Source: a virus. From it: 39,559 nt of DNA. Under the pieces are notes generated by a model. It saw only the letters and a list, made by a program, of their open reading frames with translations. It did not search any database and was not told the origin of the DNA. Where the stretch lies: positions 1-39,559 of the IMG/VR virus record IMGVR_UViG_3300038379_000636, one strand, 5' to 3'. The translations under genes were made by a program, and so were the position numbers. Shown here piece after piece: positions 1 to 39,559 of this stretch; positions within the stretch are counted from its first letter, which is position 1; each line of letters begins with the position of its first letter.

Positions 1-107
1 TTGCCCGCAGGCTTGGCTTTTCCGCGCCGTACCTCTCAGACGTCGAGCTCGGCCGCAGGAACGCAACCGAGGCGATCCTCGGCGCATACGAGTGCCTCCG
101 GCGATGA
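1..107 (+). CDS. Partial 3' duplicate of the XRE-family HTH gene annotated in full at 39297-39539
   Basis: Same sequence and frame as 39433-39539, encoding ...ARRLGFSAPYLSDVELGRRNATEAILGAYECLRR and stopping at 105-107. This is an artefact of linearising a circular sequence. Confidence 0.7.
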   Translation, partial: ARRLGFSAPYLSDVELGRRNATEAILGAYECLRR

Positions 108-127
108 CGCGCGAGCAGCTTCGGCGG
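1..127. repeat. Exact 127-bp terminal direct repeat, copy 1 (copy 2 at 39433-39559). Signature of circular closure or terminal redundancy.
   Basis: Bases 1-127 (ttgcccgcaggcttggc...gagcagcttcggcgg) recur identically at the window end. The 39432 offset is confirmed by the same TGA at 105-107 and 39537-39539. The repeat lies inside coding sequence. Confidence 0.9.
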
Positions 128-1146: not shown

Positions 1147-1343
1147 CCCTTAGCCGCGATCGCCGCGTCGAGCTCGGCCGTCTGGCCGCGGATCTCCGCA
1201 AGCACGGCCGCAATCGCTCTCTCCTTCTCGGGCCCGTCGGGTAGCGACGTGACCCCGCGCTGCGCGGCAAGGCGCAGCGCGATCGAGACGAGCTGCTCGG
1301 CGGCAGCCGGAGCGACGGTGAGCAGAGCGATGGCGAGGTTCAC
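1143..1343 (-). CDS. Hypothetical small protein (66 aa) with a hydrophobic N-terminus, last gene of the lysis cluster
   Basis: MNLAIALLTVAPAAAEQLV... The start at 1343 overlaps the upstream stop at 1340-1342. Its own stop overlaps the convergent plus-strand stop. Confidence 0.45.
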   Translation of the reverse strand: MNLAIALLTVAPAAAEQLVSIALRLAAQRGVTSLPDGPEKERAIAAVLAEIRGQTAELDAAIAAKG

Positions 1344-1927
1344 GGCTTCACCCCACGCGCTGCCAACCAGCGCAGTAAGTCAGACGAGACGCTGGCGACC
1401 CCCGCAGACGCGCGGGATAGGCCCGCCGCTGCGCCTTTGCAGGCCGGGGTGTCCTCTCCTGCGGAGCACGCCGCGATCGTCGCTTGGCGCGCATTCTCCA
1501 TCGCCTCGACCGCGGCGTCGCCCGGCACGAAGAACGCCTCGCGGATGGCGGTGCACTCCGAAGCGCTCGAGACGGGCGTGCGGCAGTACGCGATCGCCGC
1601 TTCCCGGGCGCCCGCGAGCGTCGTGAGCGCGCTGTAGTAGCGATCGGTCGGGGTCGTCCCGCACGCGAGCGCGGCGAGCGAGACGAGCGCGGCGAGCGAG
1701 ATCAGGCCCGCGCGTCGGTGGGCGAGCAAGTTCTCCACGAGACGGCGGAGAAAGCCGAACGCGGCCGAGCCCACGGCGACGAGCGCGATCGCGACCTCGA
1801 GCGGCGTGTCGGGTACGTAGTGCACGAGGATCGTCACGAGGTAGCCCGTCAAGCCGACGGTGCTCGCGTCTTTGACGGCGCCGCCGACGTAGGAGCTCGG
1901 GTTGCGCGCTGCCGCCACGGTGTTCAC
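1340..1927 (-). CDS. Membrane protein (195 aa), a holin / o-spanin-like composite: two TM helices, then a lipoprotein-like signal and a Cys-rich tail
   Basis: The GTG at 1927 overlaps the upstream TGA (GTGA). TM-like segments are STVGLTGYLVTILVHYV and LEVAIALVAVGSAAFGFL. These are followed by HRRAGLISLAALVSLAALAC|GTT (lipobox-like) and a tail with five further Cys. Confidence 0.55.
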   Translation of the reverse strand: MNTVAAARNPSSYVGGAVKDASTVGLTGYLVTILVHYVPDTPLEVAIALVAVGSAAFGFLRRLVENLLAHRRAGLISLAALVSLAALACGTTPTDRYYSALTTLAGAREAAIAYCRTPVSSASECTAIREAFFVPGDAAVEAMENARQATIAACSAGEDTPACKGAAAGLSRASAGVASVSSDLLRWLAARGVKP

Positions 1928-2349
1928 CCCCTCTGGATGTAGAGCACGTGCTCTCGTTCGCCCGCAAGATGCGCGCGAAGTGCCTGCATGGCAAGGACAC
2001 CCCCCGAGAGGTCGACGTCGTGCTCCGGGCGCGGCGCGTAGTAGTGCTCGCGGCCGACGAGGATGCAGCCGCGTGTGTCCTCGACCGTATCGCCGCCGTG
2101 GAAGAGGATCGCGCTGCGCGCTTTGCCCGCCGCGGGCTGATGGCTCACCGTGGCCCCGACGAGCGCCCACGTGTCCCGATACTTCGGGCCCGAGTGAGGG
2201 ACCAGCTGATACGAGCCTTCGGGCACGCAAGAATCCGGCCCGTTTCCCTTGAACGTGTCCTCGAGCGTCGCGAGCACGAAGCCGTCCTCGAGCTCGAGCA
2301 CTCCGCAGGTTGCGCGGCGCAGGTAGAGGCGGTGAAGCCACAGCTTCAT
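1924..2349 (-). CDS. DUF5675-like protein (141 aa), the candidate cell-wall hydrolase of the lysis cassette
   Basis: MKLWLHRLYLRRATCGVLELEDGFVLATLED...SAILFHGGDTVEDTRGCILVG matches the DUF5675 signature as I recall it (..IH.GN...DT.GCI.vG). It is flanked by membrane-protein genes and has ATGA overlap with the upstream gene. Confidence 0.7.
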   Translation of the reverse strand: MKLWLHRLYLRRATCGVLELEDGFVLATLEDTFKGNGPDSCVPEGSYQLVPHSGPKYRDTWALVGATVSHQPAAGKARSAILFHGGDTVEDTRGCILVGREHYYAPRPEHDVDLSGGVLAMQALRAHLAGEREHVLYIQRG

Positions 2350-2648
2350 CGGCGGTCCACCAGGATCCGCAGCGTCGCGTTCACGTCCGCAAGCGACATT
2401 TCCACCGCGCGAAGCCGGCGCTCGAGCTCGCTGGCGTCTCCGCGGCGCTCGCGACCGTCGCCCTCGCGCGCCGCCTCGAGCGCGCTTTGCCGAGCAGCCA
2501 CCGAGCGGAGCTCGACGCGCATCTCCGCAATCGTGCGGTACGTCCCGAGTGCACCCGCCGCGCCGGCCGTGATCGCCGCGAGCGCGAGCGATCCGATCCA
2601 CCCAACCATTCGGCCACTCAGGGTGATCGCGCCGTCGGTGCGAATCAT
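2346..2648 (-). CDS. Type-II membrane protein with a coiled-coil ectodomain (i-spanin-like or holin-like), 100 aa
   Basis: MIRTDGAITLSGRMVGWIGSLALAAITAGAAGALGTY is a single TM segment. It is followed by the charged helical stretch RTIAEMRVELRSVAARQSALEAAREG...LRAVEMSLADVNATLRIL. Confidence 0.5.
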   Translation of the reverse strand: MIRTDGAITLSGRMVGWIGSLALAAITAGAAGALGTYRTIAEMRVELRSVAARQSALEAAREGDGRERRGDASELERRLRAVEMSLADVNATLRILVDRR

Positions 2649-2700
2649 GGCGACGCCCTCCCGGGAAGTGCACAGACCACGCCAGTCTTCAGGATGAGGC

Positions 2701-4707
2701 TCATAGCGGCGTGCACGTCCCGGACTCAGCCCGAATCTGAGCGGGAAGCTTGCAGAGTGCTCCGCTGAAGTTGTCTCCGAAGGCCCCGATGCCATCGGAG
2801 TCCCACGAGCACGCCTCCTGGCACCACCAGCTCGGCGGCTCGGAGCGCGTTCGGTAAAGGGTGTTGGGGAAGTCGAGGTTCGCGTCCGAGTGAGGCCCGC
2901 TGGTGCCCTCGTTGGTGCCTGGGCAGGAGTCACCGAAGGAGGTGCCACACGAGCGATTGGAGGTGGTGCCAACCGGGTCCACGAAGTCGAACGCCTCGGA
3001 GCCGCCGTGCGTGTAGACGTTGCGCTCTGCCCAGGTGAGGTTGGCTCCAGTCCCGCCGGCACCGTCGCTGTTCAGGCTCTCGCCGTTTCTCTGAGGCGGG
3101 TCACAGCCAAGCGAGTCGGCATAGGGTGCAACCGTGAACACCCAGGAGATGTTGCCGATGATGTTGAGTTCGTCGGCTGCCCAAGGCGCGGGGCCGTCGT
3201 TGCCTTGGTAGTCCATGGTGATGCCGTTGTGGGTGCCGGGGATCGAGCTGCCGCAGTCGGTGCGCCTTGAGCGATTGCGGTAGGCCGTGATGTACTTGCC
3301 GTTGCGGCCCCACCAGAGGTCGGCAAGAAGCAGCTCGTCGTCGCAGTCGTTGCCCTCGAAGAGCGTGGCCCGCGCATAGTGGCCGTGGTTGAAGGCGCAG
3401 CGCTCACCCGTGGTGGCGTCCATGTCCACGAAGTTGTAGGCCCAGACGGTGGCCTCGGCCATCTCGATCTTCGAGCCGATCCGTGGCGCGCTGATCCAGT
3501 TGTTCTCGAACACGTTGTCGGTTGCGCCCTCCTCGAAGCTGAAGCCCTCCGTGTTGAAGGAGATCGAGGAGTCGGTGTTGGTGAGGTAGAGGCCCTGGAA
3601 CCAGCCCTGCGCTGTGTACTTGATCTTCGCCCAAGCCTCGTACACGCGGTCGATGTCCACGTTCACCATCCACACCTCTGCCGTCTCGTTGAAGACGGCA
3701 GCCGCGTAGTAGATGTTGGTGACAGAGTCGCCGCCCACGGCGATTCCAGTGTCCGTCGTGAGGCGAAGGTTCTCGACGCCGAACTTCTCCACCGGCGTCC
3801 AGGGGCGTGCGATGAACGTCACACAGCCTGCGGCGTTGTAGTCAAGGAGAAGCGGTCGGTCGAAGGTGACGTCGTTGCCGCTGATGTTGGTGATGCGGGC
3901 GTAGTGGTTGAAGGCCGGCGGGTCGGATCCACCGTTGAGCAGCTCGTCGATGTGCTCGCAGGCGAGCGCTCCTGCCATCAGGATGTTGATCCAGCCGCCG
4001 ATGGAGAAGCCCGAGACGCTGGAGAGCGTGATGGTGGTGGTGCCGGTGGTGTAGTTGGCGGTCCAGGTGGCGCTTGTTCCGCGCGCGGTTGGGGAGCAGA
4101 CGGAGATGAGCATGGCCCCGCTGTTTGCGTCACAGAGGCCCGAGTTGATGTAGGTGCGCCCGACCGTCGTCCGGCGCAGAGCCGTCCCGGTGCGAGACGC
4201 ACCCCGGATCACAAGCCTCCCGTTGCTGGTGGCGACGCCCGAGGACATCGCGTAGTTCCCGTCCGGCAGGTACAGCACGACATCGTCCGGGGCGGCATCG
4301 ACAAAGCAGTCGAGGTGTAAGCCGCTGGACGTGCTCACCAGCGTTGCGCAGGTGCCTGAGCCAACGATGGTGCGGATCGTCTCTTTCCCGCTGGAGCACG
4401 GGTTGGCCCCGCACGTCACGTCGTACTCAGGCCACGACTGCGCTGCCTCGTAAGTGCTTTCGGCGATAGCGGCGTGCTGCCAGATGGTGACGCGGCTGGA
4501 GGCCACATTGAGATCGCACAGCCCCGTTGGGCACTCTGGGGCAAACGCTCCGCCGCCTCCGCCCCCACCCCCGCTTCCTCCGCTCCCGACCAGCACGGGC
4601 GCGAATGGAATCGGAACAACGGTGGACTGCGGCGCTGGCACCACTGCCACCTGCGCAAGGGCCAAAGTGGCGAGCAGCAGCAGAATCAAGGTTGCTGCTA
4701 CTCGCAT
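2701..4707 (-). CDS. Exported Cys-rich beta-helix-like protein (putative polysaccharide depolymerase / tailspike-like), 668 aa
   Basis: Signal peptide MRVAATLILLLLATLALA|QV, then a poly-Gly linker (4549-4587). Beta-helix-like repeats are present (NVFENNWISAPRIGSKIE, SSISFNTEGFSFEEG). Many paired Cys occur (PECPTGLC, RSCGTSFGDSCPG, WWCQEACSW). RBS GAAGGAAG lies upstream. Confidence 0.75.
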   Translation of the reverse strand: MRVAATLILLLLATLALAQVAVVPAPQSTVVPIPFAPVLVGSGGSGGGGGGGGAFAPECPTGLCDLNVASSRVTIWQHAAIAESTYEAAQSWPEYDVTCGANPCSSGKETIRTIVGSGTCATLVSTSSGLHLDCFVDAAPDDVVLYLPDGNYAMSSGVATSNGRLVIRGASRTGTALRRTTVGRTYINSGLCDANSGAMLISVCSPTARGTSATWTANYTTGTTTITLSSVSGFSIGGWINILMAGALACEHIDELLNGGSDPPAFNHYARITNISGNDVTFDRPLLLDYNAAGCVTFIARPWTPVEKFGVENLRLTTDTGIAVGGDSVTNIYYAAAVFNETAEVWMVNVDIDRVYEAWAKIKYTAQGWFQGLYLTNTDSSISFNTEGFSFEEGATDNVFENNWISAPRIGSKIEMAEATVWAYNFVDMDATTGERCAFNHGHYARATLFEGNDCDDELLLADLWWGRNGKYITAYRNRSRRTDCGSSIPGTHNGITMDYQGNDGPAPWAADELNIIGNISWVFTVAPYADSLGCDPPQRNGESLNSDGAGGTGANLTWAERNVYTHGGSEAFDFVDPVGTTSNRSCGTSFGDSCPGTNEGTSGPHSDANLDFPNTLYRTRSEPPSWWCQEACSWDSDGIGAFGDNFSGALCKLPAQIRAESGTCTPL

Positions 4708-4764
4708 GGGACTTCCTTCGGCTGCGAGGTCGTTAGCCGCCCGTCCTGGTAGAGGAACTTGCGC

Positions 4765-5172
4765 TCAAGGAAGCAGCGTCGGGGCGACTGGGGTTGGGAC
4801 GACGGGAAAGGTCAGGGACGCGAACGTCGAGGCCCCCCTGCGCCCTTGGGCGTCCTCGCACGCGAAGTCGATGGTGCGCACGTCGCTTCCCGGCAGAGCG
4901 CGCGGAGCGCTGGCCGTGGCAAGGGTGACGGTGCCGCCCGGCGTGCCCGCGTTGACGCTGAGCAGCGGCGCGCCCGAGGTCTCGCGCAGCACGAGACGCA
5001 CGCCAGGCGCGGACGTGATGTTGTCGCCCGGACACACCTGCACGCTGAGAGCCGTCGTGGCCCAGTTGCGCGAGCAGGCGGGGGCAGTGGCCGTTCCGCC
5101 TTGGCAGGGCGACTGGGCGGAGGCGGCACGGGCGAGAAGGACGAGAACGAGCAACGTGAGAATCGGTTTCAC
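4765..5172 (-). CDS. Small exported protein, 135 aa
   Basis: GTG start with GTGA overlap onto the upstream stop. Signal peptide (M)KPILTLLVLVLLARAASA|QS. The mature part has 4 Cys and is beta-rich. Confidence 0.55.
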   Translation of the reverse strand: MKPILTLLVLVLLARAASAQSPCQGGTATAPACSRNWATTALSVQVCPGDNITSAPGVRLVLRETSGAPLLSVNAGTPGGTVTLATASAPRALPGSDVRTIDFACEDAQGRRGASTFASLTFPVVPTPVAPTLLP

Positions 5173-5444
5173 GATGCGACTCCCGTGGCAGGTTGATTTT
5201 CTTGCGGTCGAGGCTTCGGCACGGGTGAGCGTGGAACCGGACTCGCCACGATGGCGTCTGGATTCCATGCCTCGAATCGCTCGGGATCGCATCGCGGAAC
5301 CACGAGCACGCGATGCGGCCCGCACACGATTGCGCACTCGGCGCGGCGCTCGTCGTGTCGCAGCAGACAAGCACCGAGGTTATCTCCCTGACTTCTGTCA
5401 CAGGAGATCGCGAGCAGCGTCGCCGCGAAAATGAACCACCTCAC
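5169..5444 (-). CDS. Putative lipoprotein, 91 aa
   Basis: GTG start with GTGA overlap onto the upstream stop. (M)RWFIFAATLLAIS|CDRS is lipobox-like. There are six Cys in the mature part and a Pro-rich C-terminus. Confidence 0.55.
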   Translation of the reverse strand: MRWFIFAATLLAISCDRSQGDNLGACLLRHDERRAECAIVCGPHRVLVVPRCDPERFEAWNPDAIVASPVPRSPVPKPRPQENQPATGVAS

Positions 5445-8400
5445 GGGTTAGCACCTCCGTTCGGGTTCTCCGTCGAAGTGAGCGGAGGGATCAACTCGAT
5501 GTATCCGCTGAGCTTGAACACGTTGTTCGCGCCGGCCGTGTCAGTTACTCCGTCGATGGCTACGCCGATCATCGACTGACACTCATCCGCCAAAACCGCT
5601 GTGTTCCCGCATGACGTTCCGTCGCCGGTGAATGCGTTGCCGAGCGGCCCAACAATCCCGAGGCGCGTCAAACTTGTCGAGACTGGGCGGCCGATGTCAT
5701 AGGCACCGAGTACAAGCGGGCCAAACACGAACTGACTCTGTGTCCACGTTGTACACTGCCCGTTCCCGTCCTCGGCGGAGCAGTACCACTCGCGTACGCG
5801 AAGGTTGATCGAGTCTTCCGGTGAAGTGCTCCAGTTGGTGTTATCCGTACGGACGAACGTCGCGCGCTTGAGGAGCATGCGCTTTCGCAGCGGCCAGGTG
5901 TTTTGTCCGCCGTTCGTGCCGATGTTCGCCGCACTACACGAAAGGGCTGCGGTCGCCGTAGCCGGAGGCCCGCCCGCGAATAAGCAGTCGCCGTTCGTCC
6001 CGGTCGTCGGGGCCGTGCTTTGATTCATACCAAAGTGCAGGCGCACCTTGTTTTCGGATTCGATGCCACCGCAGTTCGGATACTTGACTCCCGCAGAGGT
6101 TCCGCCACCTAGCTGTGAGCCATCAAGAATGATAGTGGCGCTGCTGTTCACCAGGCTTTCGGCACAGCGGAAGTAAAACTTGCCGGTCAGGTTATAGACC
6201 CCGGCGTCGTCAACCGCATCCGAGGACGCCGAGGTCGCACCGCCATCCTCCGAGGAACCGATAAAGCTATTGATGCTGACCGCATCACCGCCGCGACTGA
6301 AACCAACCGCGAGGTGAATGGCGTCCCAAATCTCGTGTCCGCGATCGTTGCCGAGGCTTCCGCCGATGAATGTGGCGGACGTGATTGCGGTCGTAGCCGG
6401 TGGCGTGCATGTCAGCGACAACGGCACCTCGCCAGGACGGCCAATTGTCTGAGCGGGTGAGTCGACCGGGTTGTTATTTCCGGGCGTCCCGCAGACACCG
6501 AAAAAGTCCGCGGCACCCGCGCGCCCGGTGCCGATGCTGACGAGATCGAAGAACATCTCGTTCGTTTGAGGGGTTGCCAGGATCCACGCCACGCCCTCCG
6601 TCCAGACGTGATCGAACTGGTACTGATTCATGCGGTGGGCAACGATGTTCCCGTAACCGTTGCCCTCAATCACCGTATCTTTGAACGCTCCGTGAGCAGC
6701 CGGCGCGTTCTGCGCAAGAGCGGTGCAAGTCCCACTCACGCAGCTCGTGTAAAACGGGAGGTCGAACGTCGCCTGATCGGCTAGCACAAGACCCATCGCG
6801 TTGGCTGAGATGTAGCCGGCCTGGAATGATCCGACGAAGTTGCCGTACTGGTGGAAAGCGATTCCCTGATTCTTGATCCGCCAGCCGTGATAGTCATTGC
6901 CCCAAGCGTAGTCGTGCTCGACACCTTTGTTGTCGTTGTCGTCGTTGTTCCCCTCGATGGTCACGCGAAAGTCCACGTGATTCGAGCGCGTCATGTTGTC
7001 GTTCCACCAGCCGACAACCGTGTAGGGCGAGTCGAAGATCGTGGCGCTGTTCAATTGATTCACGCGCTGGCGCGGCCACTCGATCGAGTAAACCGTCGTC
7101 GCATCCGGCGCGGCGTCCAGCTCGACAACCCACTCGTCGCCGGCAGCGGGTGTGCAGCCGAGCGCACTTGACCAAGTGAGCGTGCGCTCGGTGTTGGACG
7201 CGATCTGCCGAGTGGACGCTGCGGCGCAACCGCTGATCCACCGCACTCGGTAGGTCGTCGCGAGTTCGTTCGTGTGCCAAGACTTGTCGTCGTCGGTCAC
7301 GCTCGTCGTCGTTGCGGAGTCGCCCGTAGCGTCGATGATGCCGCGACTCATGCAGGCGATGGTGAGGGTGTCGGCGTCGTTCGCCGTGATCGCCACCGTC
7401 CCGCCGCTGCCGGTGCCACCCGTCGCGCGATACCGCCAGCCCTGCCACTGATTCGTTGTCCACCCAGCGCCAGAATCCTCGACGGTTCCGCAGTCTGGCA
7501 GAGTGCCGGCTCCCGTCGTTCCGCCCGCGGAGGCCGTCAGGCTGGTCAGCCCGTAGACCCCACTCCCCGTGTTCACCGTCAGTTCGCCGAAGAAGCGCAC
7601 GCGCTCGTTCAGTTGCCCGAAGTTTTGTCCGGCGAAGAAGCGGTTGCCGAACTTCGCGAAGAGCCAAGGCTCGGTTTGCCCGGTCATACTCAACGGAACG
7701 TACGAGCCTTGGTGGAAGACGTAGGTGATGTTGTGGCCGCTGGTCCAATTTGTATCGGCGTCAGCGCCCAGCGGATTAATGTGTGTGTTGGAAGCTGGAC
7801 TCACCGCGGATGAGTAAGGGAAGATACCCCAGCAGATGCGCCCCGGTCCGAAGTCGTAGCCGTCCGTGAAGAGGACGTTGGGCGAGCGCCCGCCAATGTG
7901 CGCGACGATGTCGGCATCCGCCGGAGACGCCCCGGTCGAGTCGAGCACCGGACGAGTGAGTAGGTCGCAGCGGTCGTTGTAGAGCGTGAGAGTCTGCGTG
8001 TTCGCGTTGTAAAGGATGCCGGTCTCAAGGTCGCCCACATAATCGACGGCTGACTCGGCGTAGTTCAGAGTGCCGGACGGCCTGCGCGAGCTTGCGTACC
8101 CGCCGCATCGCACCTCTACGGTGCCGCCGCTGGCCGCCGTCCCCACGTTGAAGCGCAGGAACTTGGGCCCGAGCGGCCCCACCTCCGAGCCGGTGCGCCC
8201 CGTCCCCGTGACGGTGACGATCTGCGTGCCGCTGGAGGTGGCGGTGGTGGCGGTGTCTACGAGGTAGCCCGTGAGCGAGGGGCTGCCGCCCGCGGAGACG
8301 GCGCTGAAGGAGAGGTAGGCACAAGAGCGGACGTCGGTGGCGTCTTGATCGCCGGCGTCGGTCGAGGTCCACGCGAACGTGATGTATTCCCCAGCGCGAG

Positions 8401-8488
8401 CTCGGGGCAGACTCCACGTGCCTGCAACGCTTGGGAGCGCGGCGAACCACACGAAGCACAGAGCAAGCACAGCGCGCAGCGTCCTCAT
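5441..8488 (-). CDS. Large exported Cys-rich beta-helix-like protein (tailspike/depolymerase-like), 1015 aa
   Basis: The ATG at 8488 overlaps the upstream TGA. Signal peptide MRTLRAVLALCFVWFAALPSVA|GT. The N-terminal ~140 aa are paralogous to those of 8891-11347. Beta-helix-like motifs include VIEGNGYGNIVAH and RVTIEGNNDDNDNKG. Many paired Cys are present. Confidence 0.75.
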   Translation of the reverse strand: MRTLRAVLALCFVWFAALPSVAGTWSLPRARAGEYITFAWTSTDAGDQDATDVRSCAYLSFSAVSAGGSPSLTGYLVDTATTATSSGTQIVTVTGTGRTGSEVGPLGPKFLRFNVGTAASGGTVEVRCGGYASSRRPSGTLNYAESAVDYVGDLETGILYNANTQTLTLYNDRCDLLTRPVLDSTGASPADADIVAHIGGRSPNVLFTDGYDFGPGRICWGIFPYSSAVSPASNTHINPLGADADTNWTSGHNITYVFHQGSYVPLSMTGQTEPWLFAKFGNRFFAGQNFGQLNERVRFFGELTVNTGSGVYGLTSLTASAGGTTGAGTLPDCGTVEDSGAGWTTNQWQGWRYRATGGTGSGGTVAITANDADTLTIACMSRGIIDATGDSATTTSVTDDDKSWHTNELATTYRVRWISGCAAASTRQIASNTERTLTWSSALGCTPAAGDEWVVELDAAPDATTVYSIEWPRQRVNQLNSATIFDSPYTVVGWWNDNMTRSNHVDFRVTIEGNNDDNDNKGVEHDYAWGNDYHGWRIKNQGIAFHQYGNFVGSFQAGYISANAMGLVLADQATFDLPFYTSCVSGTCTALAQNAPAAHGAFKDTVIEGNGYGNIVAHRMNQYQFDHVWTEGVAWILATPQTNEMFFDLVSIGTGRAGAADFFGVCGTPGNNNPVDSPAQTIGRPGEVPLSLTCTPPATTAITSATFIGGSLGNDRGHEIWDAIHLAVGFSRGGDAVSINSFIGSSEDGGATSASSDAVDDAGVYNLTGKFYFRCAESLVNSSATIILDGSQLGGGTSAGVKYPNCGGIESENKVRLHFGMNQSTAPTTGTNGDCLFAGGPPATATAALSCSAANIGTNGGQNTWPLRKRMLLKRATFVRTDNTNWSTSPEDSINLRVREWYCSAEDGNGQCTTWTQSQFVFGPLVLGAYDIGRPVSTSLTRLGIVGPLGNAFTGDGTSCGNTAVLADECQSMIGVAIDGVTDTAGANNVFKLSGYIELIPPLTSTENPNGGANP

Positions 8489-8886
8489 TCTCGAATCACG
8501 ACCTCCCCCGCGACCGGCGCGGGCGTGGTTTCGGTCGGCGGCGCGAGAAGCACCTGCTCCTCGATCCCCGGCTTGGGCACATACGTCTCGGGCGCCGGCG
8601 CCGTCGCGCGGCGCATGCGGTTCGCCCAGTTGATGAGCGCGACTAGCGCCGCGTCTGCTTTGGCGCGCGCGAGCTCGCGCAGCGGCGAAGGCGCTTTGTG
8701 CGGCGGCTCGTAGGGATCGAAGTGCCCGAGCGGCTGCCACTCCGCGAGGAACTGCGCCTCGGAAAGCAGCGTCCGGCGTGTCGCGCCCGCGCGCGCAACC
8801 GTCCAGCGCCCGCCCTCGTCGCGGTAGGCGTACACGTACTCGGGCGGGAGCGGAGGAGCCTCGCGACGCTTTGCTTTGACGCGCAT
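8485..8886 (-). CDS. Small partner protein S1 (133 aa), paralogue of 11344-11592
   Basis: RREAPPLPPEYVYAYRDEGGRWTVARAG..LLSEAQFLAEWQPL aligns with RRRVMPVPPPEYVYAAPTESGQWAVSSPG..LLSARELLEQFAPL of S2. The gene is translationally coupled (ATGA) to the downstream large exported protein. Confidence 0.65.
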   Translation of the reverse strand: MRVKAKRREAPPLPPEYVYAYRDEGGRWTVARAGATRRTLLSEAQFLAEWQPLGHFDPYEPPHKAPSPLRELARAKADAALVALINWANRMRRATAPAPETYVPKPGIEEQVLLAPPTETTPAPVAGEVVIRE

Positions 8887-8890
8887 CAGC

Positions 8891-11347
8891 TCAGCTGCCT
8901 CGAATCGGGCTGAACGAGAGCCCGGTGAAGTCGATGTCGACGTTTCGCTGCGTGGTTCCCGCTTCCTTCACGATGACGACCGGAATCCAGTTTGTCGTCT
9001 CCGCGCCTTCGGGCAGGTTCGCGTCGTTCGTGATCGCGGTCGTGATCGTCCAGTCGACGCCGTTGGTCGAGTAGAAGAAGTCCGCGCGCGACCAGTCGCC
9101 GTTCAGGAAGATGCCGAGCCAGATGTAGTTCGTGTCCACCGTTGGCCCGGTGGCGGTCGCACAGTCCTGCACCCCGGCGTCCTCGCCGCAGCCGCGCCAC
9201 GCAGTCGAGGCGTCCACGTCGTAGAGCCAGTAGACTCCGTCGGTTGTGTTCAGCGGCTGGGTCGCGCCGCCGTCCGAAAAGCCCGAGAGCACCTCGTAGT
9301 CCTCGGTCCCCGCCGTCGCGAGCGCCTCGACCGCGATGCGCGCAAGGTGAAAGGCGGAGCTCTCCTCCGGATTGATCCCGGTCGTCCCCGACGCGGACAG
9401 CGCAATCGCCGCGCGACCCGTCGCCGTCGTCCCCGAATCGCACTGCAGCGCCGCGACGGGGTTTTGCGTGAGGCTCGTCGCGAGATACGTGCCGACCTGG
9501 CAAGACGCGCCCGTGCCGCTCACGAGGTTCGTCAGCTCCGCCGTCGCGCCGCCGAGGAACTCGCTCCAGGAGTCGAATAGGTTCGAGAGCCTGACCCGCT
9601 CGAGCGGCCGCCAGCGCGAGGTCGTCGCGTCGTAGGAGAACGTGATCGAATCGCCCGGCTGAAGGAACCACGCAGCGCGGTGCGGGAACGTGATGCGGTT
9701 GGCCGCGCTGGAGCTCGAGCTCTCGTGCGGCAGGATGATGAGCCGCGCGCCCGCGCCGCCGGGATCGGTCGCGTTCTCGATGCGCAGCAGCCGCCCACTC
9801 GAGCCGCCCGTGACGCCGGTGATCTGCAGGGTGACGGTGGGCGTGAGGCGGAGCGTGACCGCACGCGCCGGCTGCGTTCCGTTCCATCCCGTCGGCGCGT
9901 AGTCGTTCTGCGAGGCGCTCGGGGAGTCGCTCACCACGGCGAGCGCGAAGCTCGTGAACGCCAGGTTCCACGGCAGCACGTGCGCGCTCACGTTGTTCGG
10001 CGTGCTGGCGTCTTTCTGCCACACGACGTTCGTTCCGCCGCTCGCCGCTGCGGGGGTCGTGTCGTCGAAGTCGGCGTCGGTCGCGGCCGATCCGTTCACG
10101 CTGACGTTGTCCCCACCACCGCCGGCGCCGTCGTCCGAGTTGTCGGCGAAACCGATGGGGACGCCGACAAGCTGCGACCACTCCACCTTGCCCGTCGCCT
10201 GATTCGGGAAGCCGCCGCCGATCGTGTCGTCGAGCTCCTCGAGGGCAGGCCCGAGCGCCGTCGCGGTGAAGTTGGAGTCCGCGTCGTCGAAGGGGAGCGA
10301 ATCGTCGTCGAGCACGTCGGCGCCGCCCGCGTGATGCTCGCTCGCGTGCGACTCTTCCTCCAGATCCGCGGTGACATCCGTTCCCGCGTTCTGCGTAAGG
10401 CCGTGCGTGCCGGCGGACAGGGTGAGCGGCGCGCTGACGGTGATCTCTTCCGCGACGCCGGTGCCGACCGTGGTACGCCCCAGCAGTCGAGCGGTCGACA
10501 TCGACGTCGAAATGGTGCCGCCCGACTGCGTGATCGGAGCCGTGGCCGACAGCGCGCCGTAATCGCCCGCCTCGGGGACGTCGTCATCGGCCGTACAGCC
10601 TTCCGCGGCCCCCGCGGTATCGACGCCGGCGGCCCACTGATTCGCGCCGCAGTTGCCACCGTTGGACTCGAGGGCGTCGGCCTGCCGCACCTCGAAGATC
10701 ACGTCCTCGGCGGCGACGCAGCGCGCATCGGGCGCACCCGCCCCGGTGCAGCGAATCGGGTCCGCGTCGCCCTCATTCTCGAGGTCGGGATCCACCGCGG
10801 CGACGCCCTGCACCGAGACGTTGTCCCCGCCTCCGCCGCCCGGCGTGTAGCACTCCCAGGCCGAGTCGCCGGCGTCACGGCGGATTGACTGGCCGCCCGT
10901 GCAGCCGAGATCGTCGATGATCGCCGAGGCGTTGACCGAGCCCCCTGCGCTCGCCACCGCGACATTCGAACCACAGCTGAACTCGAGGATGCTCGTTCCG
11001 GCGCCGACGGCGACGCGCTGGACGCGCAGGCGCCGAAAGCGCGGAACGAAGATTGCCTCGCCGTCCGCGGTGAACGTGGCTTCGACCTTGCTCTCGGTAC
11101 ACGCCGCGTCGCTGCACGAGTAGACCGTGGCATCGCCGCCCGCGCCGTCGGCGAAGCCGACCGAGACGGTGCGGCCGAGCGGCCCGAGCCCGCGCACGCT
11201 CGAGAAGCCCGTCGAGTCGGTGGCGTCGAACCGATACTGCGAAGCGTTGTCATTCGCGCAGATCGTCGGGTCGACGTTGACCCACTGGGCGGCGGACGCC
11301 GCAAGCGACGCAAAGCAGAGCGCGAGCGCGAGGAATGCGCGCCTCAT
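8891..11347 (-). CDS. Large exported fibre-like protein with a jelly-roll/LamG-like C-terminus, 818 aa
   Basis: The ATG at 11347 overlaps the upstream TGA. Signal peptide MRRAFLALALCFASLAASA|AQ. An internal repeat GGGGDNVSV(Q/N)G occurs twice. The C-terminus YIWLGIFLNGDWSRADFFYSTNGVDWT looks lectin/LamG-like. Confidence 0.75.
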   Translation of the reverse strand: MRRAFLALALCFASLAASAAQWVNVDPTICANDNASQYRFDATDSTGFSSVRGLGPLGRTVSVGFADGAGGDATVYSCSDAACTESKVEATFTADGEAIFVPRFRRLRVQRVAVGAGTSILEFSCGSNVAVASAGGSVNASAIIDDLGCTGGQSIRRDAGDSAWECYTPGGGGGDNVSVQGVAAVDPDLENEGDADPIRCTGAGAPDARCVAAEDVIFEVRQADALESNGGNCGANQWAAGVDTAGAAEGCTADDDVPEAGDYGALSATAPITQSGGTISTSMSTARLLGRTTVGTGVAEEITVSAPLTLSAGTHGLTQNAGTDVTADLEEESHASEHHAGGADVLDDDSLPFDDADSNFTATALGPALEELDDTIGGGFPNQATGKVEWSQLVGVPIGFADNSDDGAGGGGDNVSVNGSAATDADFDDTTPAAASGGTNVVWQKDASTPNNVSAHVLPWNLAFTSFALAVVSDSPSASQNDYAPTGWNGTQPARAVTLRLTPTVTLQITGVTGGSSGRLLRIENATDPGGAGARLIILPHESSSSSAANRITFPHRAAWFLQPGDSITFSYDATTSRWRPLERVRLSNLFDSWSEFLGGATAELTNLVSGTGASCQVGTYLATSLTQNPVAALQCDSGTTATGRAAIALSASGTTGINPEESSAFHLARIAVEALATAGTEDYEVLSGFSDGGATQPLNTTDGVYWLYDVDASTAWRGCGEDAGVQDCATATGPTVDTNYIWLGIFLNGDWSRADFFYSTNGVDWTITTAITNDANLPEGAETTNWIPVVIVKEAGTTQRNVDIDFTGLSFSPIRGS

Positions 11348-11592
11348 AGCTGCCGGTTGCTCAGCACGTGCGCCTCGGCCGCCGCCTTTTCGTCCTCGGC
11401 ACGGGCCGCCGCCTCGAGCGCTGCGCTCGGCGCGAGCGGCGCAAACTGCTCGAGGAGCTCGCGCGCCGAGAGCAGAAAGATCGGGCTGCCCGGCGACGAG
11501 ACGGCCCACTGCCCGCTCTCCGTAGGCGCGGCGTAGACGTACTCGGGCGGCGGGACGGGCATCACGCGGCGGCGCAGTTTGATTGAATCCAT
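11344..11592 (-). CDS. Small partner protein S2 (82 aa), paralogue of 8485-8886
   Basis: Shares the PPEYVYA..G.W.V core with S1. RBS GGAGG lies upstream. ATGA coupling to the downstream exported protein. Confidence 0.65.
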   Translation of the reverse strand: MDSIKLRRRVMPVPPPEYVYAAPTESGQWAVSSPGSPIFLLSARELLEQFAPLAPSAALEAAARAEDEKAAAEAHVLSNRQL

Positions 11593-11601
11593 GAGGGCCT
11601 C

Positions 11602-13407
11602 CTAGTCGTAGAAGCTCGCGTCGTGCGTCGCGTGGATGTGCCAGTCGGTTTCGCTGGTCGTCACGGCGTCGAACCGGATGTACGTGTGCTTTTGGCCCGC
11701 GGCGATCGAGCCGAGCGTGCCATTGTTGCCCGAGAGGTTGCGCGGCGTGTTGGCCGCCGCGCCCGGGTTGTAAGTCGTGATCGTCCCGACAAAGCGCATG
11801 GGGCGCGCATGCTGCCAGCCGAATGCGGTCTGATTCGAGTCGTCGCCGGTCGCGACCAAGGTGCCCGGAAAACCCGCGGTGCCAGTCGCCAGCGTCGCGA
11901 CGCTCGTCGCGTAGTCCGCCGTCTTGTCGAACCCGACCTGGCACGCGGCGAGCGTTGCGTCGAAGTCGTCCACGCGCAGGCTCGAGGAGATGTCGCCGAA
12001 CGCGAGCCACGCATCGGTGACACGGAACTCGATCGTGGCCGCGTTCATCGCGAGCAGGTCCACGTAGATCTCGACCCCGTTCTGCGCGTCGGTCATCGCC
12101 CCGAGGTCGAACGTGTGCGTGAAGGCCACCTCGTTGCCTGCCGAGAGCGCACCGGGGAACGCTTGCGTCAGCCGGTTGGTCATGTTCGCCGCGGCGAACT
12201 TCGTCGCGTTGGCGTGGTCCGGCCCTGTGTTCGAGGTCGAGCGCACGTGGAAGTTGGGCGTGATCGAGCCGGTCGTGCCCGAGTGCCGCACCTTGATCCC
12301 GAACGTCACGTTCTTGGCGCCGAGTAGCGCCCCAAGCGCGCGCACTTTGCCGCGCCCAAGGCGCACGCCGAGGCGCATGTTCGTGATCCCGGCGGCGCCG
12401 GTGAAGGCGAGGCCCATCGGCGAGAGGGCCCCCGAGTGAAGGCCGGACGAGACGCGCGTCCAGGTCACGGTGCCCCCGGTCGGGAACACGAACCACTCGT
12501 CGCAGATGTAGGCGTCCACGCCGCTCGCGACGGTGCCCGTCGCCGTCTCGCTCGGGAAGCGCTGCGAGACGAGGAAGGATCCATTCACGAGCTCGTTCTC
12601 GCCCACGATGGCCGCAGCGATCGCGCTCGCAATCTGCGTCGGGACCGGCGTTCCGACCGCTTCGTAGGCGTGCGTGCGCGCGCCGGCGTCGAGGTTGTTC
12701 AGGACCGCGAGCAGCTGGAACTGGATCTTCTGCAGCTGCACGAGCAGGGTCGCGGAGTCCGCGAGCGCGAGCGGGTTCGTCTCGACCTGCTGCTCGGCTG
12801 TGTTGAGGCCCTTGATCTTGCCCAGCGTCAGCGGGTCGGTCGCGTCGAACTCGGCGTCCCCGATCGAGTTCGCCGGTGGAATCGCCGAGGGGCCCGAAGC
12901 GGTCGCCAAGTTGGCAAGCGCCCAGGCGCGCGTCACGGCGTCCTGTCCGGAAGTCGGGTCGGCGAGGTTCTTGATCCGGTTGCTGCGTGCGTCGAAGGCC
13001 CCCGCGCCATCGGTATCGGTTTCGCCAAGGCGCGGCGCGCGCTCGACGAGGTCGCGCGTGCGCTGATTCTGATGCACGGCGCGGTCGAGCTGCTCCTCGA
13101 GCGCCTCGGCCGGGAGCGACGTGCCTCCGACGAGGTCGACCTGCTGCTTGAGCTCGGGGTCGTGAATGATGTGCAGCGTGACGCCCGTCGCCGGCGCCGT
13201 GACCATCGTGACCGTTCCGCCCGCCGGCGCGTCCTCGCCGGCCACGCTGTAGTGCGTGCCGAGCGTCTTCGTCGTCTCGGTTCCGTCGGCGGCGCGCTCG
13301 ATGACGAGGAGCGCTGCCGCGTCGCGGAACATCCAGGGCACGGCGAAGGCGACCGTCGCGCCGTTGCCGGCATAGGACACTCGGACCTGCTCGCTCGTGA
13401 CCGCCAT
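11602..13407 (-). CDS. Tail fibre protein (podovirus type), 601 aa
   Basis: The N-terminus VRVSYAGNGATVAFAVPWMF...LLVIER..DGTET..LGTHYSV..GTVTMV.AP..GV.L.I..D..L.QQVDL, followed by FDARSNRIKNLADPTSGQDAVTRAW, matches recalled fibre/tailspike N-terminal signatures. It lies directly after the internal virion proteins, as in T7. Confidence 0.75.
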   Translation of the reverse strand: MAVTSEQVRVSYAGNGATVAFAVPWMFRDAAALLVIERAADGTETTKTLGTHYSVAGEDAPAGGTVTMVTAPATGVTLHIIHDPELKQQVDLVGGTSLPAEALEEQLDRAVHQNQRTRDLVERAPRLGETDTDGAGAFDARSNRIKNLADPTSGQDAVTRAWALANLATASGPSAIPPANSIGDAEFDATDPLTLGKIKGLNTAEQQVETNPLALADSATLLVQLQKIQFQLLAVLNNLDAGARTHAYEAVGTPVPTQIASAIAAAIVGENELVNGSFLVSQRFPSETATGTVASGVDAYICDEWFVFPTGGTVTWTRVSSGLHSGALSPMGLAFTGAAGITNMRLGVRLGRGKVRALGALLGAKNVTFGIKVRHSGTTGSITPNFHVRSTSNTGPDHANATKFAAANMTNRLTQAFPGALSAGNEVAFTHTFDLGAMTDAQNGVEIYVDLLAMNAATIEFRVTDAWLAFGDISSSLRVDDFDATLAACQVGFDKTADYATSVATLATGTAGFPGTLVATGDDSNQTAFGWQHARPMRFVGTITTYNPGAAANTPRNLSGNNGTLGSIAAGQKHTYIRFDAVTTSETDWHIHATHDASFYD

Positions 13408-39539: not shown

Positions 39540-39559
39540 CGCGCGAGCAGCTTCGGCGG
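39433..39559. repeat. Exact 127-bp terminal direct repeat, copy 2
   Basis: Identical to 1-127. Confidence 0.9.

Follow-up and report, generated by a model that had tools for sequence, protein, structure and literature searches.

The window analysed here, the whole 39,559-nucleotide stretch of IMG/VR record IMGVR_UViG_3300038379_000636, is a circular assembly whose first and last 127 nt are identical, which gives a genome of 39,432 bp. It carries a T7-type capsid-tail module and a lysis cassette, and seven genes separate the T7-type tail-fibre gene (11602-13407) from the lysis genes, which are found below 2648. All five open reading frames to which the initial annotation had assigned signal peptides are present among these seven, on the minus strand and with the N-termini it had read. 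Finding five such genes within seven consecutive genes out of 28 has a probability of p = 0.004 under random placement. The genes are thus clustered as had been claimed, but they are not strictly consecutive, as two genes without a signal peptide (11344-11592 and 8485-8886) are interspersed among them. The five occupy 20.8% of the genome and their span, 2701-11347, occupies 21.9%, in line with the earlier figure of 22%. In the order of transcription, the features of the region are as follows (a slash marks a predicted cleavage site).

11602-13407, minus strand: T7-type tail fibre, 601 aa, 2 Cys, no signal peptide (PF03906)
11344-11592, minus strand: small protein "type 1", 82 aa, no signal peptide, no Cys
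8891-11347, minus strand: exported (predicted) fibre-like protein, 818 aa, 15 Cys
11291-11347, minus strand: signal peptide of the 818-aa protein, MRRAFLALALCFASLAASA (heuristic score 5.33)
10943-11290, minus strand: N-domain type 1 of the 818-aa protein, followed by a fibre-repeat middle region
8894-9955, minus strand: tail-fibre tip domain of the 818-aa protein
8485-8886, minus strand: small protein "type 2", 133 aa, no signal peptide, no Cys
5441-8488, minus strand: exported (predicted) protein, 1015 aa, 21 Cys
8423-8488, minus strand: signal peptide of the 1015-aa protein, MRTLRAVLALCFVWFAALPSVA (heuristic score 5.07)
8087-8422, minus strand: N-domain type 2 of the 1015-aa protein
5444-8056, minus strand: region of the 1015-aa protein common to homologue P0008
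5169-5444, minus strand: putative lipoprotein, 91 aa, 5 Cys, proline-rich C-terminus
5400-5444, minus strand: signal peptide and lipobox (...LLAIS/C) of the 91-aa protein
4765-5172, minus strand: exported (predicted) protein, 135 aa, 4 Cys
5116-5172, minus strand: signal peptide (...ARAASA/QS) of the 135-aa protein (heuristic score 5.68)
2701-4707, minus strand: exported (predicted) beta-helix protein, putative polysaccharide depolymerase, 668 aa, 20 Cys
4654-4707, minus strand: signal peptide of the 668-aa protein
4531-4653, minus strand: Pro/Gly linker of the 668-aa protein, 41 aa
about 3328-4470, minus strand: beta-helix core of the 668-aa protein (AF2 model)
2704-3000, minus strand: Cys-rich C-terminal module of the 668-aa protein
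2346-2648, minus strand: first lysis-cassette gene, about 100 aa, N-terminal transmembrane segment and coiled coil (from sequence)
1924-2349, minus strand: DUF5675 protein, 141 aa, presumed lysis enzyme (Pfam PF18925, E = 4e-17)

The product of 11602-13407 matches PF03906 (Phage_T7_tail) in Pfam at residues 7-167 with E = 1e-8, it also matches PHROG tail-fibre families, and it is 57-81% identical over its whole length to the fibres of contigs L008 and L019. It is the virion-anchored fibre that precedes the cassette, complete and conserved. The earlier proposal that the large exported proteins sit where T7 carries its fibre is imprecise, as the true T7-type fibre, which has no signal peptide, is this upstream gene. 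Its T7 gp17-type N-terminal domain (PF03906) was not found in any of the five proteins with a signal peptide. On the downstream side the cassette ends at 2346-2648. Proteins of this type also occur in L001, behind the 668-aa homologue, and in L019, behind the cassette, and in L020 the DUF5675 family is found two small genes downstream of a signal-peptide cassette. The lysis cassette of the window holds a separate lipobox-containing ORF.

The cassette genes are packed throughout, neighbours overlapping by 4 nt or lying no more than 57 nt apart. No sigma-70-like promoter was found in 1000-14000, and the two terminator-like sites, which is fewer than expected by chance, are weak and both located inside the 1015-aa ORF, one per strand. 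As the genes overlap and have no internal promoter or terminator, the block appears to be expressed with the late genes; a promoter and terminator of its own, as in a moron or lysogenic-conversion gene, were not found for the cassette. No integrase or repressor was recognised in the 39.4-kb genome. In the cultured relative RpY1 the fibre gene is followed by one small ORF and then by the lysis genes. The cassette is absent there, and hence the block is an add-on. RpY1-like relatives are temperate.

Signal peptides were scored on all ORFs of the genome with a simple n/h/c-region heuristic, which is not a trained predictor. The five ORFs score 3.9-6.1, compared with at most 3.7 for every other ORF, most of which score nothing, and the predicted Sec and lipoprotein signals of the initial annotation are thus borne out at this level. 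The four peptides of the signal peptidase I type, which score 5.07-6.11, combine a positive n-region, an uncharged hydrophobic h-region of about 10-15 residues and, no further than about 30 residues from the start, an AxA cleavage site with small residues at -3 and -1: MRR-AFLALALCFASLA-ASA/A in the 818-aa protein, MRTLR-AVLALCFVWFAAL-PSVA/G in the 1015-aa protein, MK-PILTLLVLVLLA-RAASA/Q in the 135-aa protein and MR-VAATLILLLLATL-ALA/Q in the 668-aa protein. The lipobox of the 91-aa protein, LLAIS/C, fits the looser PROSITE-type pattern with A at position -3, the strict pattern being [LVI][ASTVI][GAS]C. Residue +2 after the Cys is Asp in this protein and Gln in its L004 homologue. A Tat signal was considered and rejected: an RRAFL motif occurs in the 818-aa protein only, its orthologues have KR (P0015) and RVR (L019) instead, and the peptides, at 18-22 aa, are short, with h-regions of strong hydrophobicity.

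The gene starts are backed by Shine-Dalgarno-like sequences or by a 4-nt ATGA/GTGA overlap with the upstream gene, homologues start at the same place, and independent gene calls on more than ten other contigs include the hydrophobic segment. Signal-peptide-like N-termini that are unrelated in sequence are found in P0003-P0005, P0008, P0015-P0018, P0021, P0025, P0032 and P0033, as well as in neighbours from L001, L004, L008, L010, L012, L019 and L020; those of P0002, which scores 3.19, and P0006 are weakly hydrophobic. The signal is therefore conserved as a property and not as a sequence, across homologues from different gene-calling pipelines. The sole call that starts downstream of the hydrophobic segment is P0001, JGI's version of the 668-aa gene itself, which begins 67 codons further in. 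Upstream of that start sits CPxGLCDLNV, a motif that the nearest homologues, P0002 and P0003, retain.

The description of these proteins as cysteine-rich is confirmed. Cys makes up 2.38% of the five proteins versus 0.67% of the 23 other ORFs, a 3.6-fold difference (Fisher p = 5e-12). In the 668-aa family 12 of 20 Cys are conserved versus 17.5% of other residues, in the 1015-aa family 18 of 21 versus 52.7%, and among 150 relatives of the 818-aa protein those that carry a signal peptide have twice the Cys of those that do not. Cys conservation, its coupling to the signal and the conserved hydrophobic N-termini support the earlier notion of oxidative folding outside the cytoplasm. Judged by sequence, the N-termini have the appearance of genuine export signals, and the proteins behind them seem made for an oxidising compartment.

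All three large proteins had been described as beta-helix-like, which holds for the 668-aa protein: no evidence of a beta-helix was found for the 818-aa protein, and the AF2 model of the 1015-aa protein has a pLDDT of 28. The AF2 model of the 668-aa protein is a right-handed parallel beta-helix with a core pLDDT of about 80-95. Its best Foldseek matches are phage tailspikes and depolymerases (4ru5, 4y9v, 4ru4 and 7w1c at E = 1e-10 to 1e-8, with 4ru5 at E = 1e-10 and 4ru4 at TM 0.41/0.46), and AlgE4 and RbmB are also among the matches. The protein has a weak Pfam pectate-lyase-like match and a weak NCBIfam hyaluronate-lyase match. Its order is signal peptide, linker, helix, and an N-terminal particle-binding or adaptor domain was not found in it. 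A homologue in a Mu-like myovirus is 69% identical and has no lineage-specific anchor domain. Such sharing between a podovirus and a Mu-like phage in the absence of an anchor domain is the look expected of a self-contained free enzyme. Three independent cellular homologues (P0004/L003, L014 and L015) lie in exopolysaccharide (EPS) synthesis loci among genes for glycosyltransferases, a Wzx flippase and sugar-nucleotide enzymes, and they have signal-like N-termini and the same architecture minus the linker. EPS loci with a homologue were seen in Myxococcota, Binatia and other MAGs.

The 818- and 1015-aa proteins have in common a modular N-domain right behind the signal peptide. This domain occurs only in that position, with a Trp conserved 2-3 residues past the predicted cleavage site, and type 2 is kept at 33-37% identity across the window, L008, L019 and P0018, while the C-terminal parts are completely different. 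The homologues P0015, P0016 and P0017 of the 818-aa protein all have a signal peptide. Relatives of its C-terminal domain number 1,869, and T7-type fibres that lack a signal peptide are among them; with these fibres the distal tip domain is the only shared part. About 78% of the relatives have ordinary unexported fibre N-termini and about 22% have export signals, and among the latter are proteins whose long, fibre-like shafts reach 2,210 aa. The 1015-aa protein, whose gene has a GC content of 62.8% versus 69.8% for the genome, is 56% identical over residues 145-1015 (871 aa) to P0008, a 1289-aa protein of an HK97-capsid phage, which begins with a signal peptide of its own and differs in the rest of its N-terminal part. 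Each of the two large genes is preceded by the gene of a small protein whose stop overlaps its start (ATGA). The 82-aa protein upstream of the 818-aa gene is a paralogue of the 133-aa protein upstream of the 1015-aa gene (42% over 52 aa); it has an orthologue in L008 at 9762-10004 and no match in Pfam, PHROG or NCBIfam. Orthologues of the 133-aa protein, 60-64% identical, are found directly upstream of type-2 N-domain proteins in L008 and L019, and it has no relatives in IMG/VR.

The two small exported proteins recur together in L004. There, a 93-aa homologue of the 91-aa protein (E = 6e-17) with the canonical lipobox LSA/C directly follows the homologue of the 1015-aa gene, as in the window, and further along the cassette lies a 132-aa protein that is 49% identical to the 135-aa protein and also has a signal peptide. 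The C-terminal PVAPTLLP of the 135-aa protein is a motif common to the cellular homologues of the 668-aa protein. A two-component spanin was rejected for this pair, as the 135-aa protein, with its cleavable signal and a beta-rich sequence full of Gly, Pro and Thr, has neither the transmembrane segment nor the coiled coil of an i-spanin, and both genes lie outside the lysis cassette, between the 1015- and 668-aa genes.

Homologues that carry the signal occur in five or more further phage types (podo-, Mu-like myo-, sipho- and HK97-type among them), and their genes are invariably flanked by tail genes on one side and lysis genes on the other. L001 has a short baseplate-proximal fibre of 329 aa, and the protein that comes next, of 1454 aa, bears a signal peptide. 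No homologues of the cassette proteins were found in 50,697 GenBank phage records, and full-text literature searches found no description of a comparable phage system, in agreement with the initial annotation. We know of no precedent in tailed phages for receptor-binding proteins matured in the periplasm. Phage PBR31 does encode an esterase with a signal peptide next to its lysis genes (PMC10975493).

The best reading of these findings is that 2701-11592 is a horizontally mobile seven-gene late-operon cassette, whose proteins derive from tail fibres and tailspikes and are directed to Sec and not to virion assembly in the cytoplasm. Its proteins are probably exported and glycan-targeting. Signal peptidase I, or signal peptidase II in the case of the 91-aa protein, would cleave the signal peptides, and folding and disulfide formation would take place in the periplasm of the host, presumably a high-GC diderm, with the proteins building up there late in infection. 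A type II secretion system may pass the beta-helix enzymes outward. When the adjacent lysis genes fire, the proteins would be set free and, as virion-independent factors, would bind and cut host surface or matrix polysaccharide, which would open a path for progeny and eliminate the receptors that debris carries. For the 668-aa protein, the clearest case, a free depolymerase is the favoured reading. That all of the proteins act free rather than on virions has, in our estimate, somewhat less than an even chance. Several observations speak against it. The 818- and 1015-aa proteins resemble modular receptor-binding proteins more than free enzymes, since the mature-N-terminal domain is conserved and the C-terminal parts are swapped, shafts such as those of their relatives are not needed in a soluble enzyme, and 21% of a 39-kb genome is much for accessory enzymes. 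Furthermore, each of the two is paired with a signal-less small protein that matches its N-domain type.

Because the 818- and 1015-aa proteins share an N-domain after the signal peptide, docking to virions after lysis stays a live alternative. These two proteins, and perhaps others, would then be virion fibres or spikes that mature in the periplasm for the sake of their disulfides and dock onto particles from the cytoplasm once the holin has opened the inner membrane, by means of the mature-N-terminal domain and possibly via the 82- and 133-aa proteins as adaptors on the T7-type fibre. Retention of the type-2 N-domain with swapped C-terminal parts is the usual signature of virion-anchored receptor-binding proteins, and in the pair of the 1015-aa protein and P0008 it is the N-terminal part that changes with the phage morphotype while the 871-aa C-terminal part is kept. 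The confinement of the N-domain with its Trp to the position behind the signal peptide, the translational coupling of the matching partner genes, the tip domain shared with signal-less T7-type fibres and the gene order of L001 all point the same way, as does the signal-less fibre, which is adaptor-like and conserved over its whole length whereas the downstream proteins vary. Fibres can also join particles outside cells, as in the classical in vitro complementation of T4. However, the literature offered no tailed-phage precedent, the 668-aa protein lacks an anchor domain and is nearly unchanged between podovirus and myovirus, the small "adaptor" is missing before the L019 type-1 protein and before P0018, and the time between holin firing and dilution is short. 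We regard this alternative as possible but doubtful. The same tentative standing applies to its generalisation, a two-compartment assembly in Caudoviricetes in which Sec-exported, disulfide-rich fibres or spikes dock after holin action through the N-domain and small cytoplasmic adaptors; it would span podo-, myo- and siphoviruses of environmental high-GC diderm hosts.

The remaining explanations are less probable still. The proteins could be retained in the envelope, where they would mask or destroy the receptor glycan, at the surface or from the periplasmic side, and keep other phages and the phage's own progeny from adsorbing to the infected or lysogenic cell, similar to Llp, Cor and Lom/Bor. 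A lipoprotein and small exported proteins are indeed part of the cassette, the 818-aa tip domain would give receptor specificity, relatives such as RpY1 are temperate and, because the homologues sit in EPS loci, an exported depolymerase would meet EPS and O-antigen in the periplasm, where they are polymerised. Such exclusion is nevertheless improbable, as coupling to the structural genes in a late operon without its own promoter or terminator implies expression shortly before lysis, the genome has no recognised integrase or repressor, and known exclusion proteins are small, compared with 668-1015 aa here and up to 2,210 aa in relatives. We give very little credence to host-derived secreted glycanases that the phage carries to boost nutrient acquisition by the host and that have no part in adsorption or release. 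About 5% of prophage-encoded CAZymes do carry signal peptides (PMC13507307), the 668-aa family has cellular members and the GC content of the 1015-aa gene deviates, but the cellular homologues lie in EPS synthesis loci and not in catabolic ones, the 818-aa protein has a tail-fibre tip domain and fibre repeats, the position at the junction of tail and lysis genes is kept in many phages, and there are no CAZy-type Pfam matches. Just as improbable is that the proteins are not exported and that their N-termini are gene-start artefacts or uncleaved structural or membrane helices of proteins assembled in the cytoplasm. The JGI start of the 668-aa gene, the tendency of high-GC genomes to yield Ala/Leu-rich translations and the use of a heuristic in place of a trained predictor would allow this. 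It conflicts with the conserved Cys motif upstream of the JGI start, with starts that have ribosome-binding sites or ATGA coupling, with the independent calls on more than ten contigs, with the restriction of the full n/h/AxA layout to these five ORFs genome-wide and with the coupling of Cys content to the presence of a signal peptide.

In textbooks, the morphogenesis of tailed phages is entirely cytoplasmic, and phage depolymerases are regarded as virion parts or as surplus unassembled copies freed by lysis. Our analysis suggests host-surface proteins that fold outside the cytoplasm, which have not been described for tailed phages previously. Their recurrence in unrelated morphotypes, together with the roughly 22% of tip-domain relatives that bear signals, suggests a sizeable class of environmental phages that handles glycan-targeting proteins differently. 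If these are free enzymes, they represent a new route for phage-driven degradation of matrix and capsule and offer biotechnology a supply of depolymerases that are secreted by nature and stabilised by oxidation. If they instead attach to virions once the cell has lysed, another approach is needed to host range, to virion proteomes and to the prediction of receptor-binding proteins, and pipelines that drop signal-peptide proteins as non-structural would miss them.

Among known systems, phage tailspikes and depolymerases (phi297 gp61, LKA1 gp49, AP22 gp54 and those of Klebsiella phages) have the same beta-helix core as the 668-aa protein, whose gene likewise lies by a tail-fibre gene, the cassette being located between that gene and the lysis genes. 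Known tailspikes, however, bind the particle through an N-terminal domain, lack a signal peptide, contain few Cys and are assembled onto virions in the cytoplasm, whereas the 668-aa protein has a signal peptide, a Pro/Gly linker and 20 Cys (12 of them invariant), and its nearest non-phage relatives are cellular EPS-locus proteins. Besides AlgE4 and RbmB, which are fold matches of the 668-aa protein, the exported tailspike-like EPS enzyme WceF of Pantoea stewartii is a close comparison: it also combines a signal peptide with a tailspike-like beta-helix, but its signal is of the Tat type (PMC7949094) and those of the window look Sec-type. Enzymes of the WceF type reside in polysaccharide loci, whereas the window copy is in a phage late operon packed with fibre-like genes, and no sequence similarity of the window protein to WceF was found. 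Sec-exported and SAR endolysins (Lys44 of Oenococcus phage fOg44, Lyz of P1) are also late proteins that the Sec machinery of the host exports ahead of lysis and that stay in the envelope until then (PMC6116005). They are small peptidoglycan hydrolases, unlike the set of five in the window, which comprises large fibre-like and spike-like proteins together with accessory ones and in which no muralytic domain was detected. The 91-aa protein resembles the Rz/Rz1 o-spanin in being a small, Cys-containing, proline-rich lipoprotein. T5 Llp, phi80 Cor and lambda Lom/Bor share signal peptides or lipoboxes with the window proteins, and lambda lom and bor are located near tail-fibre and lysis genes. These are small single-gene morons expressed from the prophage, whereas the window genes have no separate promoter or terminator and encode proteins that reach 1015 aa and contain fibre and depolymerase domains. 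The pIII protein of filamentous phages, a part of the virion that binds the receptor, likewise carries a Sec signal peptide and has disulfides formed in the periplasm. However, inoviruses are assembled by extrusion at the membrane, whereas the phage described here has a T7-type capsid-tail module and a lysis cassette.

The five open reading frames that the initial annotation had singled out, together with their N-termini, were recovered exactly when we re-read the sequence, and all five carry a signal peptide (SP) or, in one case, a putative lipobox. They are not consecutive, however. The block between the T7-type tail fibre and the lysis genes comprises seven genes, two of which encode proteins without a signal.

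Genes of the block (position, strand, product)
11344-11592, minus strand, 82-aa protein, no signal
8891-11347, minus strand, 818-aa protein, signal peptide
8485-8886, minus strand, 133-aa protein, no signal
5441-8488, minus strand, 1015-aa protein, signal peptide
5169-5444, minus strand, 91-aa protein, putative lipobox
4765-5172, minus strand, 135-aa protein, signal peptide
2701-4707, minus strand, 668-aa protein, signal peptide

Four of the junctions are 4-nt ATGA/GTGA overlaps, the remaining gaps are 57 nt or less, and good Shine-Dalgarno sequences precede several of the starts. As the block contains no promoter-like site and its two terminator-like sites are weak and fewer than expected by chance, it is part of the late operon. 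We rejected the idea that a programmed frameshift joins each small protein to a large one, as supporting evidence was not found and plain ATGA coupling accounts for the overlap. Also rejected were a spanin reading of the 91-/135-aa pair, a Tat reading of the export signals, and long upstream ORF extensions, which overlap the fibre gene, are rich in Arg and look off-frame.

Signals were scored in all ORFs of the genome with a simple n/h/c-region heuristic, which is not a trained predictor. The five proteins scored 3.9-6.1, every other ORF scored 3.7 or less, and random placement would put five such genes inside seven neighbours of 28 with p = 0.004. The predicted cleavage sites read ASA|AQW (818 aa), SVA|GTW (1015 aa), AIS|C (91 aa), ASA|QS (135 aa) and ALA|QV (668 aa). 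These genes occupy 20.8% of the genome, and the Cys content of their products is 2.38% versus 0.67% elsewhere (p = 5e-12). The JGI gene call for the 668-aa ORF (P0001) starts 67 codons downstream. The Cys motif CPxGLCDLNV, which the 668-aa protein has in common with P0002 and P0003, the homologues nearest to it, is encoded upstream of this start, and hence the long form is right. The GC content falls to ~63% across the 1015- and 91-aa genes (5169-8488; 62.8% in the 1015-aa gene) versus ~70% for the genome, which suggests that the 1015-aa gene was acquired recently and is compatible with a recent gain of the pair; the homologous pair in an HK97-capsid phage (L004) has a GC content of 60-65%.

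The first and last 127 nt of the window (1-127 and 39433-39559) are identical, and the genome was therefore assembled as a circle of 39,432 bp. All recognised genes lie on the minus strand except for one ORF at 490-1146, the sole convincing plus-strand ORF, which ends in a weak match to the DnaJ J-domain (HPD-like 'RHPDQGG'; Pfam E = 0.003, under the curated cutoff). The structural genes were assigned by family searches.

Structural and lysis genes (position, strand, product)
34173-35747, minus strand, large terminase
30410-32050, minus strand, portal
minus strand, scaffold/protease-like protein
27444-28322, minus strand, major capsid protein
23426-25681, minus strand, tail tube B
13408-21516, minus strand, internal protein of 2702 aa
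11602-13407, minus strand, T7-type tail fibre (Pfam PF03906)
below 2648, lysis region: protein with a TM segment and a coiled coil; DUF5675 protein; ORF with TM segments and a lipobox; 66-aa ORF

By capsid DNA, the closest cultured relatives are temperate Ralstonia and Burkholderia podoviruses. In one of these, Ralstonia phage RpY1, the tail fibre is followed by one small ORF of unknown function, holin, lysin and Rz, and the cassette is absent. The block is thus an insertion between the fibre and lysis genes. Outside the structural, cassette and lysis genes only ~5 kb of the genome is left, in which no DNA polymerase, RNA polymerase or integrase was recognised, whereas the 43-kb RpY1 has an integrase and a DNA polymerase. 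The internal virion protein is almost Cys-free and carries a RadC-like JAB domain at residues 1089-1200 (Pfam PF04002, E = 2e-17); its 2638-aa orthologue in a close podovirus relative (L008) has no Cys at all. The DUF5675 protein (1924-2349, minus strand) occupies the endolysin position, and another family member (10646-11083) lies just downstream of the SP cassette of contig L020, two small genes after it; this protein may be the muralytic enzyme of both phages. A Cys-rich ORF with CxxC pairs (37973-38515, minus strand) resembles an HNH or zinc-finger nuclease, with no Pfam match at the thresholds applied to neighbouring ORFs.

Database relatives of the 668- and 1015-aa proteins are very few. 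All that are full length keep a hydrophobic N-terminus, although these segments are unrelated in sequence; its SP character is clear in most, but less so in P0002 and P0006. Among relatives of the 818-aa protein, the closest ones likewise start with an SP-like hydrophobic segment. The homologues are found in the tail regions of quite different phage types.

Cassette contexts (SP-n, SP protein of n aa)
L001/L002, Mu-like myovirus: baseplate genes, four SP proteins (197, 1454, 256 and 658 aa), lysis genes
L004-L007, 57-kb HK97-capsid phage: seven SP proteins in a row (1289, 93 (lipoprotein), 712, 702, 132, 159 and 718 aa)
L008, close podovirus relative: fibre, 80 aa, SP-749, 126 aa, SP-732, SP-bearing ORF of at least 70 aa at the contig end
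L019, close podovirus relative: fibre, SP-365, SP-220, small type 2, SP-565, lysis genes
L012, siphovirus: SP-1074, SP-287, GH108 lysin
L010, L011, L020: further contexts

The order common to these contigs is a tail or fibre protein without SP, a run of Cys-rich SP proteins and then the lysis genes. The 1289-, 93- and 132-aa proteins of the HK97-capsid phage are homologues of the 1015-, 91- and 135-aa proteins, respectively. The incomplete last ORF of L008 (14839-15048) has an SP followed by thrombospondin-type-3-like, Asp-rich calcium-binding repeats (DADGVADLVDNCP…); it adds a further protein of extracellular type at this cassette position.

Wider searches added little. The 50,697 GenBank phage records hold no relatives of these proteins bar one domain match: tblastn with the three large proteins yielded nothing beyond a weak hit to a domain, in four podoviruses from metagenomes. 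IMG/VR yielded just one additional lineage member, L019; IMG/VR scans with the small-protein and N-domain alignments and two metagenome scans with the fibre gave no further ones. Six of the seven cassette proteins have no family in Pfam, PHROGs or NCBIfam, and the SP proteins of the related loci produced one weak sub-threshold match in the family libraries (Glyco_hydro_43, E = 3e-4, to the L004 702-aa protein). PDB sequence and profile searches with the three large proteins and the N-domain returned nothing useful.

For the 818-aa protein, 1,869 relatives were retrieved by an exhaustive HMMER search, nearly all of them matching its C-terminal 350 residues. Of the 150 top-ranking ones, 117 carry ordinary fibre N-termini, T7-type included, and 33 (22%) carry SP-like ones; Cys content is about twofold higher in the latter (1.33% versus 0.71%, p = 2e-7). 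The same domain is present in the SP-less T7-type fibre of one GenBank metagenomic podovirus. Since this tip domain is mostly found on ordinary fibres, the 818-aa protein is a tail-fibre derivative in which a putative export signal has replaced the virion anchor.

The region behind the signal is modular. A domain of ~110 aa (type 2) directly follows the predicted cleavage site in the 1015-aa protein, the L008 732-aa protein, the L019 565-aa protein and P0018, at 33-37% identity, whereas the C-terminal parts are unrelated. A second domain (type 1) is common to the 818-aa protein, P0015, P0042 and the L019 365-aa protein (P0053). Both open with a conserved Trp 2-3 residues past the predicted cleavage site, and within this data set both are seen only behind an SP. 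The T7-type fibre, which lacks an SP, is 57-81% conserved along its whole length. In all three podoviruses the type-2 protein is preceded by a 126-133-aa protein without SP or Cys, and two of them also have its 80-82-aa paralogue before the type-1 protein. These small basic proteins (11344-11592 and 8485-8886 in the window) have a K/R-rich N-terminal stretch followed by P-P-(P/A)-E-Y-x-Y-A; they have no database family and no IMG/VR relatives, and within this data set they are confined to the present podovirus lineage, where they stand before SP proteins.

The large proteins had been described as beta-helix-like, and this holds for the 668-aa protein, the core of which is a right-handed beta-helix in an AlphaFold2 model that is confident at residues ~80-460. 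For the 1015-aa protein, modelled with its sole full-length homologue, confidence was low (pLDDT 28); profile-profile comparison showed no relation between its family and that of the 668-aa protein, and 18 of its 21 Cys are kept in P0008, the 1289-aa homologue. The best PDB matches of the 668-aa model are the tailspikes or depolymerases phi297 gp61, AP22 gp54, LKA1 gp49 and the Klebsiella K1 lyase, followed by AlgE4 and RbmB. The BFVD matches agree, and weak sequence matches are to pectate-lyase-like proteins and the hyaluronate endo-lyase family. The model thus shows a beta-helix fold of depolymerase type.

Cellular homologues of the 668-aa protein are found in MAGs of Myxococcota, Binatia, Gemmatimonadota and Eisenbacteria, which suggests a high-GC environmental diderm as the host. 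Those with flanking sequence lie among glycosyltransferases, a Wzx-type flippase, sugar-nucleotide enzymes and an acetyltransferase, i.e. in polysaccharide synthesis loci. Of the 20 Cys in the 668-aa protein, 12 are invariant across phage and cellular members, as compared with 17.5% of all positions. The Cys-rich C-terminal module (2704-3000; …WWCQEACSW…GIGAFGD.F…LCKLPAQIR..G.CTP) also ends a different, 848-aa SP protein of L020 (7446-9992) and hence behaves as a separate mobile domain. The motif P-[VL]-A-P-x-L-[LP] stands at the extreme C-terminus of small exported cassette proteins (the 135-aa protein, 4765-4790; L004 18404-18802) and of the cellular EPS-locus homologues of the enzyme (P0005/P0006/P0040), and a similar PFAPVLV lies in its phage-specific linker (4590-4610), close to where the mature protein would begin. 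The motif could serve in common as a peptide for docking or sorting.

We infer that the five signal-bearing proteins would be exported via Sec with cleavage of the signal, would fold oxidatively in the periplasm of a diderm host and would accumulate until the adjacent lysis genes fire. Our preferred explanation, held tentatively and at slightly less than an even chance, is that they then act as free factors on the polysaccharide of the host surface or matrix. The case is clearest for the 668-aa enzyme, because this is self-contained, of cellular type and moves unchanged between phage morphotypes; its podovirus and Mu-like copies share 69% identity and both lack an anchor domain. In the main rival explanation, the 818- and 1015-aa proteins would be genuine receptor-binding proteins, folded in the periplasm and docked on the particles once the holin has opened the membrane. 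The conserved N-domains with swapped C-termini, an N-terminal part that differs with phage morphotype (1015-aa protein versus P0008), the great length of some fibre-like relatives (up to 2,210 aa) and the small partner genes matching the N-domain type argue for docking, but no precedent for it is known and the 668-aa enzyme is without an anchor; we give it a fair chance, though a smaller one than free action.

Compared with free action and docking, the other explanations are less likely. Improbable is a role in exclusion or surface remodelling. That the genes are metabolic CAZyme morons would agree with the signal peptides borne by about 5% of prophage CAZymes (PMC13507307), but we give this very little credence, and just as little to the proteins not being exported at all.

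The initial annotation knew of no phage system organised in this way, and full-text literature searches are in agreement with it, as they retrieved neither such a system nor any report of SP-bearing fibre or tailspike homologues in tailed phages. The nearest known items are exported endolysins (PMC6116005), an SGNH esterase with an SP that adjoins the lysis genes of Xanthomonas phage PBR31 (PMC10975493), and WceF of Pantoea, a tailspike-like enzyme that is exported and belongs to the stewartan locus (PMC7949094). The latter parallels the 668-aa protein as an exported tailspike-like enzyme of a polysaccharide locus, the loci in the 668-aa case being those of its cellular homologues. In summary, the parts of the cassette are of known kinds; what is new, as far as can be told, is the export signal on such proteins, their assembly into a multi-gene cassette and the recurrence of that cassette in different types of phage.
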